This document shows positions 24,544 through 62,760 of a stretch of 64,000 bases of DNA, piece after piece. The position numbers and the translations under genes were made by a program. Origin of the DNA: an uncultured Gammaproteobacteria bacterium (lineage in GTDB: Bacteria; Patescibacteriota; Patescibacteriia; UBA2196; GWA2-42-15); the NCBI GenBank assembly GCA_964573135.1, contig CAZNIO010000005.1, positions 3,362 through 67,361 of the forward strand, given 5' to 3'. Within the stretch, counting starts at the first letter, position 1. The number at the start of each line of letters is the position of its first letter. Below the pieces are notes generated by a model, which saw only the letters and a list, made by a program, of their open reading frames with translations, was not told the DNA's origin and searched no databases.

Positions 24544-25752
24544 ATGAAAACCCTCATCAAAAAACTAACTCCCAATTTTATTCTCTCATATTACCATCTA
24601 ATATTAGCTATTTTAGCCAAATTATTTTACAACAACCCATCAAAAAGAATGACAGTTATTGGGGTAACGGGAACCGCTGGTAAATCATCAACCTGCTATT
24701 TTATTGCCCAAGTTCTAGAGGCCTCTGGTTTTAATGTTGGCATGACAACAACCACTCTTTTTAAAATCAAAAACAAAGAGTGGCTAAACGATCAAAAAAT
24801 GACCATGCTTGGTAGATTCCAAACTCAGAAACTTCTAAAAAAAATGGTAAAACAAAATTGCAACATTGCTATCATCGAAACATCCTCTGAAGGCATTAAG
24901 CAATCTCGTCATGTTGGTATTAATTATGATATATTAGTTTTTACCAATATCTATCCTGAACACATCGAAAGTCATGGTAGTTTTGAAAAATATAAGCAAG
25001 CCAAAGGAAGGCTCTTCAAGCACTTAGAAAACTCTTATCACAAAAAAAATATTGAAAAGACAATCATAGTTAATAAAGATGATGAGAATGCAAACTATTT
25101 CTTAAATTTCAAGGCTGATAAAAAAATCACCTACACAAAATCAGATGCTCAAGGGTATAAAATAAATTTACTTGGAAAATATAACATATACAATGCTTTA
25201 GCAGCTGCAAATGTAGCCAGTGTCCTCAAGGTTGATCACCTAAAAATTAAACAAGCCATTACCAACCTCAAGCCATTACCCGGTAGACTCGAATTTATTA
25301 AAAATAATAAAGGGTTTAAAATAATGGTTGACTACAGTTTTGAGCCACAAGCTCTAGAAAAACTCTATCAAACACTAAGCGACGTTAAATACAACAAACT
25401 CATCCACGTCTTGGGCTCTTGTGGTGGTGGGCGCGACAAAGCCAGGCGACCAATACTTGGCAAAATGGCAGAAAAAAAAGCCAATACTATCATCGTCACC
25501 AACGAAGATCCATACGACGAAAATCCACAAACAATCATCGACCAAGTCATTTCTGGCATAAAAGACAAAAGTAAAACATTAAAAATACTAGATCGCCGAC
25601 AAGCCATCCACAAAGCCTTATCAATTGCAAAAGAAAACGATCTCGTCCTAATAACTGGCAAAGGAGCTGAACAAGCAATTTGCACAGCCCATAATAAAAA
25701 AATGCCGTGGGATGACCGACAAATAGTTAAAGAAGAACTAACTAAAATATAA
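24544..25752 (+). CDS. Mur ligase family protein (MurE-like central plus C-terminal domains, short N-terminus)
   Basis: P-loop VIGVTGTAGKSST at residue ~40, PGRLE motif, C-terminal VTNEDPYDENPQ resembling the MurE DNPR region. 402 aa, so it lacks the ~100-aa N-terminal domain of canonical MurE. Confidence 0.7.
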   Translation: MKTLIKKLTPNFILSYYHLILAILAKLFYNNPSKRMTVIGVTGTAGKSSTCYFIAQVLEASGFNVGMTTTTLFKIKNKEWLNDQKMTMLGRFQTQKLLKKMVKQNCNIAIIETSSEGIKQSRHVGINYDILVFTNIYPEHIESHGSFEKYKQAKGRLFKHLENSYHKKNIEKTIIVNKDDENANYFLNFKADKKITYTKSDAQGYKINLLGKYNIYNALAAANVASVLKVDHLKIKQAITNLKPLPGRLEFIKNNKGFKIMVDYSFEPQALEKLYQTLSDVKYNKLIHVLGSCGGGRDKARRPILGKMAEKKANTIIVTNEDPYDENPQTIIDQVISGIKDKSKTLKILDRRQAIHKALSIAKENDLVLITGKGAEQAICTAHNKKMPWDDRQIVKEELTKI

Positions 25753-25773
25753 ATAATACTTGACTAAAAATCT

Positions 25774-26763
25774 ATGTCTAAAAAATTCGATATAATTAGC
25801 ATTGGATCTGCTGTACGTGACATTTTTATCCAAAACAAAGACCTAAGTTGCCAAGGAAAAATATGTCATCCTTTTGATCCAAGCAATCTTGGCAATAAAA
25901 TCACTGTTAAAGAAATGTATTTTGACATTGGGGGTGGCGGATCAAATTCTGCCGCAACTTTCTCAAATATGGGTTTACAAACCGCACTCATAAGCCAAAT
26001 TGCCAATGATCTGCCTGGTAAAGAAATACTTAAAACAATGAAAAAATTTAAGGTAGATACTAGTTTAGTAAATATAAAAAAGAGAGAAGAAACTGGTTAC
26101 TCTGTAATATTTTTAAGCAATACTGGTGATCGCACCGCCCTTATCTTCCGTGGCGCAAGTGACTTTAAAAATTTTAAACTCAAAAAAACCAACATCCACT
26201 CCACCTGGCTTTTTGTAACATCCCTTAACGGCAACTTGCCTCTTCTTAAAAAACTGCTCCAAATTGCCAAAAAAAATAATATAAAAATTGCCTGGAATCC
26301 AGGCAACAAAGAACTACTTTCAAGTAAATCTCAGCTAAAGCCCATATTACAAAAGACTGACGTTCTTCTACTTAACATCAAGGAAGCTCAGGCATTGACC
26401 AACTCTAAAAGCAAAAACATTAAACCTATCGTCTCAAAGCTCTCAAAAATTGCACCAAATGCAATAATCTCTGTAACCGCCGGTAACCGAGGTGCTTTTG
26501 TCAAAGATAAATCCCAGCTCTTGTCTGCCAAAATTCTCGATAAAAAAGTAGTCAACGCCACTGGCGCTGGCGACGCCTTTGGCTCAGGTTTTGTTTCTGG
26601 CCTCCATCTATACAACTACGACATCAAAAAAGCACTCCAGCTAGCCATGCTAAATTCAAATAGTGTAGTCACTAAAATGGGTGCCAAGCACGGTTTACTC
26701 AATAAGCCACCCACTAAAAAAATGTTAGATAAAATCAAAATAAAAGTCACTCTAGCTACTTGA
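25774..26763 (+). CDS. PfkB-family carbohydrate kinase (ribokinase-like)
   Basis: DIGGGGSNSAATFSNMG and NATGAGDAFGSGF signature motifs. Confidence 0.8.
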   Translation: MSKKFDIISIGSAVRDIFIQNKDLSCQGKICHPFDPSNLGNKITVKEMYFDIGGGGSNSAATFSNMGLQTALISQIANDLPGKEILKTMKKFKVDTSLVNIKKREETGYSVIFLSNTGDRTALIFRGASDFKNFKLKKTNIHSTWLFVTSLNGNLPLLKKLLQIAKKNNIKIAWNPGNKELLSSKSQLKPILQKTDVLLLNIKEAQALTNSKSKNIKPIVSKLSKIAPNAIISVTAGNRGAFVKDKSQLLSAKILDKKVVNATGAGDAFGSGFVSGLHLYNYDIKKALQLAMLNSNSVVTKMGAKHGLLNKPPTKKMLDKIKIKVTLAT

Positions 26764-31013: not shown

Positions 31014-31043
31014 AAACCACCTCAATAAAACGAGGTGGTTTTT
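31014..31043. terminator. Bidirectional hairpin AAACCACCTC-aataaaac-GAGGTGGTTT flanked by A/T tracts
   Basis: Between tRNA-Arg (+) and the TrmB-like gene (-). Confidence 0.6.
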
Positions 31044-31063
31044 AAATTATATAAATCATTATA

Positions 31064-31846
31064 CTAAAACTGTTCCAGATCGGCCCACATAAATTCAAAC
31101 CACATCTTAAATGATTTTACGATTGCCGAACTTTCAATAACAATTCCAGACGGATGATCAACCACATCAATAAAAACAATTTTATCTAACCAACATAAAA
31201 CATCAGTAGTAAAATCATCTTCTCCTTTCGGCCAAGCCTTGTAACAATGCTTATTTTGGCTCTTCTTCATTAAATCAACATATTGTCGACCAACCTCTGA
31301 TTCATAAATAATACCTCTTTTTGTCATCTCATGTGCAACATCAATATATTTCTTGCTTTTCATCCATCCTGGCAAAAGAGACTCTAGGCGAGCCGGAGAA
31401 AAAATAGTTAAAAGCTCAGAGCTAAATAACTGCTTTTTCAAATCACGACGAATTTCATCATATATATTTTCAATTCCTTCTTTGCCCTCAAAAAAACGAA
31501 TTTTAGTTCTTTGATTCTTTCCCACCTGAAGAGCGTCAAAGACGCTAGCAGCCTTAATGAAATCATTCTCTAAGAACTGAAGTTCTTTTTGCTGACGCGA
31601 TATATAAGCCAATAAATCTGCATAACCAATTGCCTCGTATTTACGAGTATTTTTCTCTTCAATTTTAGTCAAAAGTCCTTTTTTTTGTAAATCTTCAGCA
31701 ATGTCATAAACATGTGTTCGAGTAACGCCTGATTCATCAGCAATACTGCTCACGCTAGAAGACCCCAGCTTGGTTAAAGCTAAAAAAATCTTAACCTCTT
31801 TTTCACCTAATCCCAAACGTGATAATAATTGGCTAATATTAGTCAT
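31064..31846 (-). CDS. TrmB-family transcriptional regulator (N-terminal wHTH plus C-terminal sensor domain)
   Basis: N-terminal LLSRLGLGEKEVKIFLALTKLG...SIADESGVTRTHVYDIAEDLQKKGLL matches the TrmB HTH. Confidence 0.6.
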   Translation of the reverse strand: MTNISQLLSRLGLGEKEVKIFLALTKLGSSSVSSIADESGVTRTHVYDIAEDLQKKGLLTKIEEKNTRKYEAIGYADLLAYISRQQKELQFLENDFIKAASVFDALQVGKNQRTKIRFFEGKEGIENIYDEIRRDLKKQLFSSELLTIFSPARLESLLPGWMKSKKYIDVAHEMTKRGIIYESEVGRQYVDLMKKSQNKHCYKAWPKGEDDFTTDVLCWLDKIVFIDVVDHPSGIVIESSAIVKSFKMWFEFMWADLEQF

Positions 31847-31882
31847 ATGGTTTAATTGTTGTAAATAATTACCGACAACTTA

Positions 31883-31911
31883 AGTATACACTATCATTTT
31901 AGCCTTGTCAA
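31883..31911 (-). promoter_or_regulatory. Near-consensus promoter TTGACA-17-TATACT driving the TrmB-like gene
   Basis: Reverse strand: TTGACA (31911..31906), 17 bp spacer, TATACT (31888..31883). Confidence 0.6.
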
Positions 31912-31935
31912 TAGGAAAAAAGATGTAAATAATAC

Positions 31936-31964
31936 TTGACAAACTTATCAATATAGTGTATACT
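31936..31964 (+). promoter_or_regulatory. Near-consensus promoter TTGACA-17-TATACT driving the small ORF 32021..32170
   Basis: TTGACA 31936-31941, 17 bp spacer, TATACT 31959-31964. Back-to-back with the minus-strand promoter. Both share the motif ATAGTGTATACT. Confidence 0.6.
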
Positions 31965-32020
31965 ACTCTAATACACAAATAAATAAAATCGTTCATTTCC
32001 TTTAATAAAGAGGTACTATC

Positions 32021-32170
32021 ATGGTACTCCATTATTGGTTATTTATATCAGGATTAAGCATGTTCCTAGTAGGAATAACTCGCGTAATAAAAAATCGGGA
32101 TAAGTATCTCAGCATATTTTGGCTTATCCTTTCTATTGCGCAGTTAATAACTGCGTATGCACTAAAGTAA
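32021..32170 (+). CDS. Unannotated 49-aa small membrane protein (MVLHYWLFISGLSMFLVGITRVIKNRDKYLSIFWLILSIAQLITAYALK)
   Basis: SD AAAGAGG 8 nt upstream of the ATG. Two hydrophobic helices. Near-consensus promoter upstream and a strong hairpin terminator downstream. Below the ORF-track size cutoff. Confidence 0.5.
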   Translation: MVLHYWLFISGLSMFLVGITRVIKNRDKYLSIFWLILSIAQLITAYALK

Positions 32171-32174
32171 AAGT

Positions 32175-32216
32175 AGCTGGCTGTATACTACTCGTATGCA
32201 GCCAGCTCTTTATTTT
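32175..32216 (+). terminator. Hairpin AGCTGGCTG-(15 nt loop)-CAGCCAGCT plus CTTTATTTT
   Basis: 9-bp GC-rich stem immediately after the small ORF stop. Confidence 0.55.
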
Positions 32217-32249
32217 GCCCAAATCCACGCAACCTGTTAACATTAAAAC

Positions 32250-34340
32250 ATGATAAATTTAGATACAGAGGTAGAGGCTATATCCCCTATTGCAAAAAAA
32301 ATAACCCCTAAATTAAAAAAACTTGGCATCCATACTGCTGGGGATCTTTTACATTATTTACCCTTCAGATGGGAAGATTGGACAAAAATCAAACTCATAA
32401 AAGATATCGAGCCAAACACAAACGTAACTATAAAAGGACAAATTGAACTTATTCAAAACAAACGTTCTCAGTGGAAAAAAAGACTAATTACCGAAGCCAT
32501 TATAACTGACGAGACTGACCAAATCAAAGCAATCTGGTTCCATCAACCCTATCTAATTCAAAACCTCCACCCAGGAGATCAGCTTTATCTCTCAGGCAAA
32601 GTAGATCAAAAAGAAGACGGGCTGCAATTTGTCCATCCCAATTTCGAAAAAATTACTAAGTATAAAACAACCACCACTCATACTGCAAGAATAGTGCCCA
32701 TCTATCCTTTAACTAAAAACGTAACCACCAAACAACTCCGTTTCCTTATAAGTAGAATAATCCATTTATCTAATAAAATACCAGAGTGGCTACCTGATGA
32801 TATTATACTAGAAAATAAGTTAAACAAACTACCAATCGCACTAAAACAAATTCACTTCCCAGATAGCCAAAATCTACTCAACCAAGCAAAAGACAGACTA
32901 AAATTCAATGAGTTCTTTCTGCTTCAATTACGCACAAATCTAGCCAAACAAGAACTTAAAAAAAATAAAAGTCTACCCATAAAATTCCACGAAAAAGAAA
33001 CTAAAAAATTCGTGGATTCTCTTCCTTTTACGCTAACCTCAGCCCAAAAAATAGCTGCTTGGGAAATAATAAAAAACATGGGAAAAAATACTCCAATGAA
33101 CCGCTTACTCGAAGGCGATGTTGGGTCAGGTAAAACAATCGTAGCTTGCTTAGCGATTCTCAATAGCACACTGAATAATTGCCAAACAGCCTACATGGCT
33201 CCCACAGAAATTTTAGCTAGCCAACATTTCAATACCATTGCTCAACTATTTAAAGGCTTACCCATAAATATCGCCCTGTTAACTAGAACAGAAAAAAAAC
33301 TAATTAACTGCAAAACAAGCAAAACACAAAATCTCAAATCAGATATATATAAATCTATATCCTCTGGAAAAATTGATCTAGCTATTGGCACACATGCCCT
33401 CATACAAGATAAAGTTACCTTCAATAATTTAGGATTAATTATTATTGATGAACAACACCGCTTTGGCGTTCAGCAAAGAAAAAGCCTAAAACAAAAAAAT
33501 AAAAAGGGGGCTATACCGCACTTGTTATCAATGACGGCCACCCCCATTCCACGCTCACTTGCTCTAACAGCCTACGGAGATTTAGATCTCTCGATCATCA
33601 ATCAGATGCCTAAAGGACGTAAAAAAATAATAACTCAAGTAGTACCGTCTGAAAAACGTCCGGAAAAATATAAATTTATTCAAGAACAAATAAAACAAGG
33701 CAGGCAGGCATTTGTTATTTGTCCCCTAATTGACCCATCAGATAAATTGGGCGTTAAGGCAGTAAAAGATGAATACAAAAAACTAAATGAAAAAATATTT
33801 CCTAATCTCCATATTGGTCTAATGCATGGCAAACTTAAAACCAACGTTAAAGAAAAAGTCATGAATGACTTTTTAAATAATAAAACTCAAATCTTAGTTT
33901 CCACTCCTGTTATTGAAGTTGGTATTGACGTACCTAACGCCACTATTATGCTGATAGAATCAGCTGAGCGCTTTGGTTTGTCTCAATTGCATCAATTCCG
34001 TGGTCGAGTTGGGAGAAGCAACCACCAATCATATTGTTTTCTTCTTACGGAATCTGACTCCGAAGTCTCCATAAAGCGCATGCATGCGCTTATGGAATAT
34101 AATGATGGGTTTAAACTAGCTGAAAAAGACCTAGAATTTCGCGGCCCAGGAGAAGTATATGGCATTTCACAATCCGGCTATCAAGATGAATTAAAAATTG
34201 CTAAACTTACAGATTATCTCATCATAAAAAAATCAAAAAGTGCTGTTGAAAAAATCATCTCAAGAGATCCAAACCTCAAAAAAAACCCTTTAATCCGTCA
34301 AAAAATAGATGAATTTGAAAATAAAATTCATTTAGAATAA
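32250..34340 (+). CDS. recG: ATP-dependent DNA helicase RecG
   Basis: Wedge/OB N-terminus. Helicase motifs LEGDVGSGKTIVA, IIDEQHRFGV, QFRGRVGRS. 696 aa. Confidence 0.9.
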   Translation: MINLDTEVEAISPIAKKITPKLKKLGIHTAGDLLHYLPFRWEDWTKIKLIKDIEPNTNVTIKGQIELIQNKRSQWKKRLITEAIITDETDQIKAIWFHQPYLIQNLHPGDQLYLSGKVDQKEDGLQFVHPNFEKITKYKTTTTHTARIVPIYPLTKNVTTKQLRFLISRIIHLSNKIPEWLPDDIILENKLNKLPIALKQIHFPDSQNLLNQAKDRLKFNEFFLLQLRTNLAKQELKKNKSLPIKFHEKETKKFVDSLPFTLTSAQKIAAWEIIKNMGKNTPMNRLLEGDVGSGKTIVACLAILNSTLNNCQTAYMAPTEILASQHFNTIAQLFKGLPINIALLTRTEKKLINCKTSKTQNLKSDIYKSISSGKIDLAIGTHALIQDKVTFNNLGLIIIDEQHRFGVQQRKSLKQKNKKGAIPHLLSMTATPIPRSLALTAYGDLDLSIINQMPKGRKKIITQVVPSEKRPEKYKFIQEQIKQGRQAFVICPLIDPSDKLGVKAVKDEYKKLNEKIFPNLHIGLMHGKLKTNVKEKVMNDFLNNKTQILVSTPVIEVGIDVPNATIMLIESAERFGLSQLHQFRGRVGRSNHQSYCFLLTESDSEVSIKRMHALMEYNDGFKLAEKDLEFRGPGEVYGISQSGYQDELKIAKLTDYLIIKKSKSAVEKIISRDPNLKKNPLIRQKIDEFENKIHLE

Positions 34341-34360
34341 GCTAAATACAATAGGCCCAA

Positions 34361-34386
34361 AAAAGCACCTTCACAGGTGCTTTTTA
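34361..34386. terminator. Bidirectional hairpin AAAAGCACCT-tcac-AGGTGCTTTT
   Basis: Between convergent recG (+) and the DsbA-like gene (-). Confidence 0.6.
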
Positions 34387-34407
34387 ATTAATATTTTAAA
34401 ATATTTA

Positions 34408-62732: not shown

Positions 62733-62760
62733 TTGACTTTAACTTTATCTATGATATAAT
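62733..62760 (+). promoter_or_regulatory. Promoter TTGACT-16-TGaTATAAT (extended -10)
   Basis: -35 at 62733-62738. TG at 62752-62753 and TATAAT at 62755-62760. ATG at 62794. Confidence 0.55.

Follow-up and report, generated by a model that had tools for sequence, protein, structure and literature searches.

A conserved pair of putative operators between a TrmBL2-like regulator gene and a divergent promoter in bacteria of the candidate phyla

The stretch of DNA analyzed here (the window) comprises 64,000 nucleotides (nt) of contig CAZNIO010000005.1 in GenBank assembly GCA_964573135.1, from an uncultured, Peregrinibacteria-like bacterium whose GTDB lineage is Patescibacteriota. It is 35% GC, and long open reading frames (ORFs) cover 92% of it. 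At positions 31064 to 31846, on the minus strand, it carries a monocistronic gene for a regulator of the TrmB family of 260 amino acids (aa). Divergent from this gene, on the plus strand, lie a 49-codon ORF (32021 to 32170), an intrinsic terminator (32175 to 32216), and recG (32250 to 34340). A preliminary description of this interval had reported two back-to-back promoters, a short ORF with a Shine-Dalgarno (SD) sequence and two hydrophobic segments, and a terminator belonging to that ORF; we found every one of these elements in place.

The two promoters lie between the regulator gene and the short ORF. P(-), from which the regulator gene would be transcribed, has its -35 hexamer TTGACA at 31911 to 31906 and its -10 hexamer TATACT at 31888 to 31883, on the minus strand. 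P(+), which would fire in the opposite direction, has the same hexamers on the plus strand, at 31936 to 31941 and 31959 to 31964. Both match the consensus at 11 of 12 positions, both have a 17-bp spacer and hence the hexamer spacing of a sigma-70 promoter (17 ± 1 bp), and 24 bp separate their -35 hexamers. With up to one mismatch allowed, TTGACA-N17-TATACT occurs nowhere else in the 64 kb, and the two account for all but one of the three sites in the window that match TTGACA/TATAAT at 11 or more positions. The third such site is TTGACT-16-TATAAT on the plus strand (62733 to 62760; 11/12); the remaining promoters of the window are ordinary TTGnnn-17-TAnnnT sites, often with an extended -10 TGn. 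The 12-mer ATAGTGTATACT, to which the preliminary description had drawn attention as a shared extended motif, is indeed exact in both promoters and has no further exact copy in the window. We nevertheless rejected it as a conserved element, because it is specific to this genome and is not kept in the orthologous loci described below.

A second signal overlaps the promoters. The window contains two exact matches to the palindrome TGTAAATAAT-N4-GACA in this region, compared with 1.3 matches expected by chance when up to two mismatches are allowed. Operator A (TGTAAATAATTACCGACA, 31860 to 31877) covers approximately +1 to +17 of the regulator transcript and is a putative autorepression site of the regulator. 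Operator B (TGTAAATAATACTTGACA, 31924 to 31941) has as its right half the -35 hexamer of P(+). The two start 64 bp apart, about six helical turns, and so lie on one face of the helix. A further candidate, TATAAATAATACTTGACT (25748 to 25765), agrees with operator B at 16 of 18 positions if the unspecified spacer is included. Since both mismatches fall on conserved TGT/ACA bases, we did not count it, and it is probably not a functional operator; its placement, 8 nt 5' of a pfkB-family carbohydrate kinase gene (25774 to 26763), is suggestive for a TrmB-family regulator.

From 34 loci we collected the DNA that precedes the regulator gene. It comprised 27 distinct sequences, and 25 of these could be aligned; in the other two (loci L007 and L027) this region is GC-rich and of a different kind, and they were left out. 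In the 25 distinct orthologous loci, the operators, both sets of -35 and -10 elements, and the spacing align nearly gap-free, and the position of P(-) is kept. Read outward from the start codon of the regulator gene, the shared layout is a palindrome, the -10 and then the -35 element of P(-), a second palindrome, and the -10 element of P(+). Operator A reads TGTAAATwATTTyCGACA in these loci, with an N7 variant (CGTAAG-N7-CTGACA) in the Doudnabacteria group, and the -35 element of P(-) reads TTGTCAAT or TTGTAAAT on the top strand. The right half of the second palindrome is the TTGACA -35 element of the outward promoter, which in nearly all loci is followed by a -10 element 17 bp further downstream.

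The distances are equally constant. Where a pattern search scored both operators, they are 64 bp (N6-type) or 66 bp (N7-type) apart in 14 of 15 loci, and operator A lies 76 to 79 bp from the P(+) -35 element in 22 of 23. Because the regulators encoded at those loci are just 40 to 57% identical to that of the window, the retained layout reflects strong purifying selection on this noncoding arrangement. The back-to-back promoters of the preliminary description therefore look real and are kept in orthologous loci, but the conserved signal is the pair of putative operator palindromes, which that description had missed, rather than ATAGTGTATACT. Two smaller features were seen in the same alignment. 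In several loci (L006, L008, L010, L020 to L023, and L035), GC-rich palindromic inserts resembling miniature inverted-repeat transposable elements, such as GTCATTCTGAGCCCGAATGCATCTGAGGGCGAAGAATCTC, separate operator A from the start codon of the regulator gene; they occupy the 5' leader of the regulator gene, and the operator-promoter block stays intact. Most loci also have a GTT(T/A)AA motif about 5 nt past the P(+) -10 element, around the presumed transcription start, which is absent from the window.

The regulator is TrmB-like, as had been proposed. Its residues 8 to 73 match PF01978, the TrmB winged helix-turn-helix, with 55.8 bits (cutoff, 25.6; E = 4e-15), and a profile of 18 orthologs matches TrmB (3qph; E = 2e-8) and TrmBL2. 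Pfam detected no C-terminal TrmB sugar-binding effector domain in the 260 residues. We rejected an assignment to TrmB sensu stricto or TrmBL1, sugar-sensing proteins of ~340 aa, because the NCBIfam equivalogs score 33 to 36 bits against cutoffs of 600 to 650. An AlphaFold2 model made with the 18 orthologs has a predicted local distance difference test score (pLDDT) of 87.6, and its best full-length matches in the PDB by Foldseek are the TrmBL2 structures 5box, 5bqt, and 5bpd (E ~1e-13); the C-terminal domain alone matches the phospholipase D (PLD)-type nuclease NucT. The modeled architecture is TrmBL2-like: a winged helix, a long coiled-coil helix, and a single PLD-like C-terminal domain. TM-scores against TrmBL2 are low (0.35 to 0.38, at ~18% sequence identity), and in the model they indicate a different orientation of the domains.

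Within the recognition helix (motif TRTHVYD), residues R43, T44, and Y47 are invariant in the 18 orthologs. Tyr50 is a DNA-contacting recognition residue of Pyrococcus furiosus TrmB (PMC4158304), and Y47 probably corresponds to it, judging from its position in the helix-turn-helix. A scan of genome contigs with the single protein gave no orthologs, but profile-based scans did. The orthologs belong to "Candidatus Peregrinibacteria," Doudnabacteria, Magasanikbacteria, Paceibacterota, and related metagenome bins, and the nearest of them, with 57% identity, stands beside a different neighbor gene. In the window, the regulator gene is closed by a hairpin at 31015 to 31045, which lies between it and a tRNA-Arg gene and resembles a bidirectional terminator.

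On the other side of the control region, transcription from P(+) would start near 31971, judging from the promoter elements, and would yield a transcript of ~245 nt, roughly 31971 to 32215, in which the 49-codon ORF is the only ORF. Its leader is ~50 nt long. An SD-like sequence, AAAGAGGT (32007 to 32014), places a GAGG (32010 to 32013) 7 nt before the ATG at 32021. From the stop codon of the ORF it is 4 nt to the terminator stem (32175 to 32207), which consists of 14 bp, seven of them GC pairs, with a 5-nt loop; CTTTATTTT follows, and the predicted stability is -25.6 kcal/mol. This is a GC-rich hairpin followed by a U-tract (CUUUAUUUU), as in an intrinsic terminator, and it ends 34 nt before recG. 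The elements and the stability of the hairpin bear out the compact, insulated promoter-SD-ORF-terminator unit that the preliminary description had seen here. A hydropathy scan of the ORF found two hydrophobic segments, a pattern present in 4 of the 171 window ORFs of 40 to 80 aa (2.3%). A single-sequence AlphaFold2 model (pLDDT, 87.9) has helices at residues 2 to 24 and 26 to 48, so that the product would be a two-helix membrane peptide. That the ORF is unannotated is only partly so, since some public contigs do carry a gene call for it.

Two features link the two ends of this unit. All 9 nt of the SD region AATAAAGAG (32004 to 32012) are complementary to the terminator U-tract CTCTTTATT (32206 to 32214), and the minimum free energy fold of the full transcript pairs them. 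A 19-nt direct repeat is also present on the plus strand. Its first copy, TGTATACTACTCTAATACA (31957 to 31975), lies over the P(+) -10 element and start region, and its second, TGTATACTACTCGTATGCA (32182 to 32200), in the loop and 3' arm of the terminator. The copies agree at 16 of 19 positions, 12 of them consecutive; by a rough estimate, the chance of an exact 12-mer repeat within 500 bp of such composition is ~0.02. Both copies are TGTAT...ATACA-like palindromes, and TGTATA is the left half of operator B in four other loci (L010, L015, L026, and L035). Chance may account for them, or they may serve as additional operator sites or as a -10-only promoter for recG.

What does P(+) drive in other lineages? 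We observed that its first gene varies by lineage while the control region stays fixed. It encodes a solute-binding protein in two loci (SBP_bac_3 in L010 and NMT1 in L026), an unknown protein of ~325 aa in L016, L018, and L031, and a zinc-ribbon protein in L021, L022, L036, and L038; secreted or membrane proteins are among the products. In nearly all cases, a strong SD precedes the ATG of the first gene by 5 to 8 nt. The same partner gene is found only between regulators at least 76% identical, and partners differ even at 70 to 77% identity. The genes share no common functional theme: two encode solute-binding proteins, and the others have no Pfam match. Small two-helix membrane ORFs do recur in this position: that of L008/L009 has 74 aa, and that of L037 has 68 aa and a terminator behind it. 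We detected no homology among the two-helix ORFs of the window, L008, and L037, and the L008 ORF is itself an orphan. Hence, three lineages, the window included, hold unrelated small two-helix membrane ORFs behind P(+). In a variant of the L008 lineage (L042, 280 to 1884), the sequence of the 74-aa ORF departs from its counterpart at about residue 40, and directly after it comes an IS4-type DDE transposase gene, which is consistent with the insertion of an insertion sequence (IS) element into the ORF.

From these observations we propose that 31860 to 31964 is the control region of the TrmBL2-like regulator and that the P(+) transcript is most likely translated into a lineage-specific 49-aa membrane peptide, an account to which we give an even chance. 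The regulator would bind operators A and B, and would probably do so cooperatively, since their spacing is fixed at about six helical turns. Binding at operator A would repress the regulator's own gene; binding at operator B would occlude the P(+) -35 element or possibly activate through it. P(+) would then produce the ~245-nt transcript, from which a peptide folded as a helical hairpin in the membrane would be made before transcription ends at the strong terminator, and residual read-through may supply recG. What makes this plausible at the sequence level is that the ORF fits snugly between promoter and terminator, has an SD at ideal spacing and a two-helix pattern, and has positional analogues in two other lineages. 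No function can be assigned to the peptide, since it falls into no known family.

Several results weigh against a translated ORF, and they keep our estimate for translation itself only a little better than even. The peptide itself was the only match both among 5.8 billion clusters, in a word-indexed search, and among 1.84 billion representative proteins, which were searched exhaustively with phmmer. The ORF scores -0.02 per codon for codon usage, which ranks at the 5th percentile among segments of 49 codons from real genes and is reached or exceeded by 40% of the window's small ORFs of 40 to 80 aa; chance ORFs of 40 to 60 aa are, moreover, common in sequence of 35% GC. Among public contigs with the exact regulator or the exact peptide, all nine that were compared are 100% identical to the window over the promoter-ORF region and so offer no substitution pattern for or against synonymous conservation. 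The SD on which the preliminary description had relied is there, but it is a weaker and odder argument than it seemed, because SD-like motifs (GGAG/GAGG/AGGA-type, 3 to 17 nt 5' of the start) are scarce in this genome and precede only 4 of the 44 long ORFs of the window. The stable hairpins inside the ORF (-9 to -11 kcal/mol) fit a role at the RNA level as well as they fit coding, and a recG gene with no promoter of its own behind a very strong terminator is awkward for an insulated unit. The preliminary description had itself named two grounds for abandoning the peptide, a lack of conservation in relatives and a conserved noncoding RNA structure in its place; on the first, the ORF has no homolog and the contigs that carry it are all 100% identical, so that it speaks neither way, and on the second, Rfam gave no known or evidently conserved noncoding RNA in the region.

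Perhaps, then, the P(+) transcript is a noncoding small RNA (sRNA) of ~245 nt that acts through its hairpins, by base pairing or protein binding, under the control of the TrmB-like regulator, with a merely fortuitous ORF? The orphan status of the ORF, its codon usage, and the frequency of chance ORFs would all agree with this, as would the hairpins within the ORF and the 9-nt complementarity of the SD region to the U-tract. Compared with shuffled sequences, the transcript folds with a z-score of -5.9 with its terminator and -2.5 without it (31971 to 32172), against -1.4 for the antisense strand. However, Rfam 15 found only tRNAs in the whole window at the gathering score, and between 31700 and 32400, at E ≤ 10, only spurious matches to the terminator hairpin. 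Chance would be unlikely to bring together a correctly spaced GAGG, an ATG, a two-helix pattern seen in ~2% of small ORFs, and a stop codon 4 nt short of the terminator, and in orthologous loci P(+) drives protein genes led by an SD. We regard an sRNA as unlikely, and a translated peptide as the better account.

The position of recG raises a different question. The ORF and hairpin might form a leader-attenuator for this gene, as in pyrBI: a ribosome reaching the end of the ORF would sit over part of the hairpin's 5' arm and allow read-through, and recG would depend on the regulator and on the coupling of transcription to translation. A consensus scan found no plus-strand promoter matching at 9 or more of 12 positions between 31965 and 32250, leaving recG without a recognizable promoter of its own; the gene starts just 34 nt past the U-tract. 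Its start is confirmed by full-length alignment to RecG models (NCBIfam equivalog, 839 bits, aligned from residue 2 or 3). At its other end it has its own terminator and faces a convergent gene, and therefore it needs an upstream promoter; the hairpin there, at 34360 to 34395, resembles a bidirectional terminator and separates recG from the convergent DsbA-like gene. The 4 nt between stop codon and stem are within a ribosome footprint, making occlusion geometrically possible. Against attenuation, no antiterminator was identified, the 5' arm of the terminator having no alternative partner in the predicted folds, the hairpin is very stable, and the ORF has no runs of regulatory codons. A weak promoter (TTGCCC-17-TAACAT, 8/12, read by eye) or a -10-only promoter in the hairpin loop could serve recG instead. 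Finally, no recognizable recG-like gene comes first after P(+) in the fetched orthologous loci, which makes the link to recG lineage specific. An attenuator is improbable on this evidence, and translation of the ORF as a peptide in its own right remains our preferred explanation.

We give a similarly small likelihood to a broader proposal in which the regulator and its two-operator bidirectional promoter form a cassette, conserved across several lineages of the candidate phyla, with a regulated expression slot behind P(+) where lineage-specific genes are repeatedly captured or born, the orphan peptides of the window, L008, and L037 being examples. The 49-aa ORF would then be of de novo origin or evolving very fast, would be expressed on the regulator's signal, and would possibly gate recG.

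Less likely again is a P(+) transcript with no function at all. P(+) could be kept because its -35 element is half of operator B, with leftover or newly arisen sequence downstream and a terminator that protects recG. The turnover of P(+) genes even between regulators 70 to 77% identical would be expected, and the equivalent small ORF in L042 is indeed interrupted by an IS element; the ORF of the window is an orphan with codon usage unlike that of real genes. But in a compact genome, it would be out of the ordinary for 250 bp of junk to be equipped with a perfect promoter, SD, and terminator, and the region has no similarity to the divergent genes of other loci. We also considered whether the ORF region is the remnant of a lost gene and rejected this: when 20 proteins encoded divergently from the regulator were compared with 31900 to 32300 by tblastn and with the peptide by blastp, no match was better than E = 0.3. 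A functionless transcript is thus a poor explanation next to an expressed membrane peptide.

A type I toxin-antitoxin system, to whose toxins the preliminary description had likened the unit and in which an antisense RNA would restrain a toxin in the membrane, fits a small hydrophobic peptide behind a strong promoter but is very improbable, since the sole minus-strand promoter candidate (32240 to 32212; 9/12) is at chance level (16 sites compared with 7.5 expected by chance in 2 kb), a scan found no minus-strand terminator in the ORF or intergenic region, the peptide has two helices instead of one and matches no toxin or defense family (no match below E = 0.07 in Pfam, NCBIfam, PADLOC, or PHROGs), and the unit sits under the operator of a protein regulator, which is not type I logic.

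Almost nothing is known of transcriptional control in the host-dependent, uncultivated bacteria that carry this regulator. If our reading is right, it supplies a testable cis-regulatory code for the regulator across several of these phyla: TGTAAA-N6/7-TyGACA operators, 64/66-bp phasing, and autoregulation. A literature search found no paper with both TrmB and Patescibacteria, and a broader search had no TrmB among its top matches. The slot behind P(+) is also a genomic position in which orphan small membrane ORFs recur, which makes it modestly interesting to those who study small proteins and the birth of genes. The ORF of the window stays an unverified orphan, and the layout of an autoregulated regulator divergent from its target is textbook.

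How does this locus compare with known systems? The archaeal TrmB family (TrmB, TrmBL1/Tgr, and TrmBL2) shares with the window's regulator an N-terminal PF01978 winged helix and a conserved tyrosine in the recognition helix, and TrmBL2 (5box/5bpd) also has the coiled-coil helix followed by a PLD/NucT-like C-terminal domain. In TrmBL1/Tgr, a palindromic operator over the transcription start serves for repression, and the gene is autoregulated (PMC4158304); the operator over the regulator's transcription start and the predicted autoregulation in the window resemble this. The differences are as clear. The host is bacterial and its promoters are of the sigma-70 type. The operators are TGTAAA-N6/7-TyGACA rather than TGM (TATCAC-N5-GTGATA) or TACT-N7-8-GAGTA. 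Unlike TrmB and TrmBL1, the regulator has no sugar-binding domain, and unlike TrmBL2, which coats DNA nonspecifically, it has two conserved specific sites, which argue for site-specific binding.

For the plus-strand unit, likenesses are found in two directions. With type I toxins and with small membrane proteins such as MgrB, AcrZ, and KdpF, it shares a product of fewer than 60 aa that is very hydrophobic and a stand-alone arrangement with its own promoter and terminator. The type I toxins Hok, TisB, Fst, and TxpA usually have a single helix. The peptide differs from both groups in its two helices and the lack of any family relation, and the only candidate promoter for an antisense RNA is at chance level. 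With pyrBI leader attenuators, it shares an ORF of 40 to 50 codons that ends at a strong terminator upstream of a gene with no promoter of its own. Its ORF, however, stops 4 nt before the hairpin and does not run through it, no antiterminator or pause signals were found, and a hydrophobic, two-helix product is unlike typical leader peptides.

The closest parallel in layout is with TetR-tetA and MarR-type loci, which have divergent regulator and target promoter pairs with two in-phase operators. Back-to-back promoters, one operator each on the regulator and target promoters, and autoregulation are common to these loci and, by prediction, to the window. The regulator is of another family, and here the target gene changes between lineages. 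We conclude that the locus repeats, in a new lineage, the known and ordinary arrangement of an autoregulated regulator and a divergent target promoter; what is new is the predicted two-operator control region, which is conserved across several candidate phyla.

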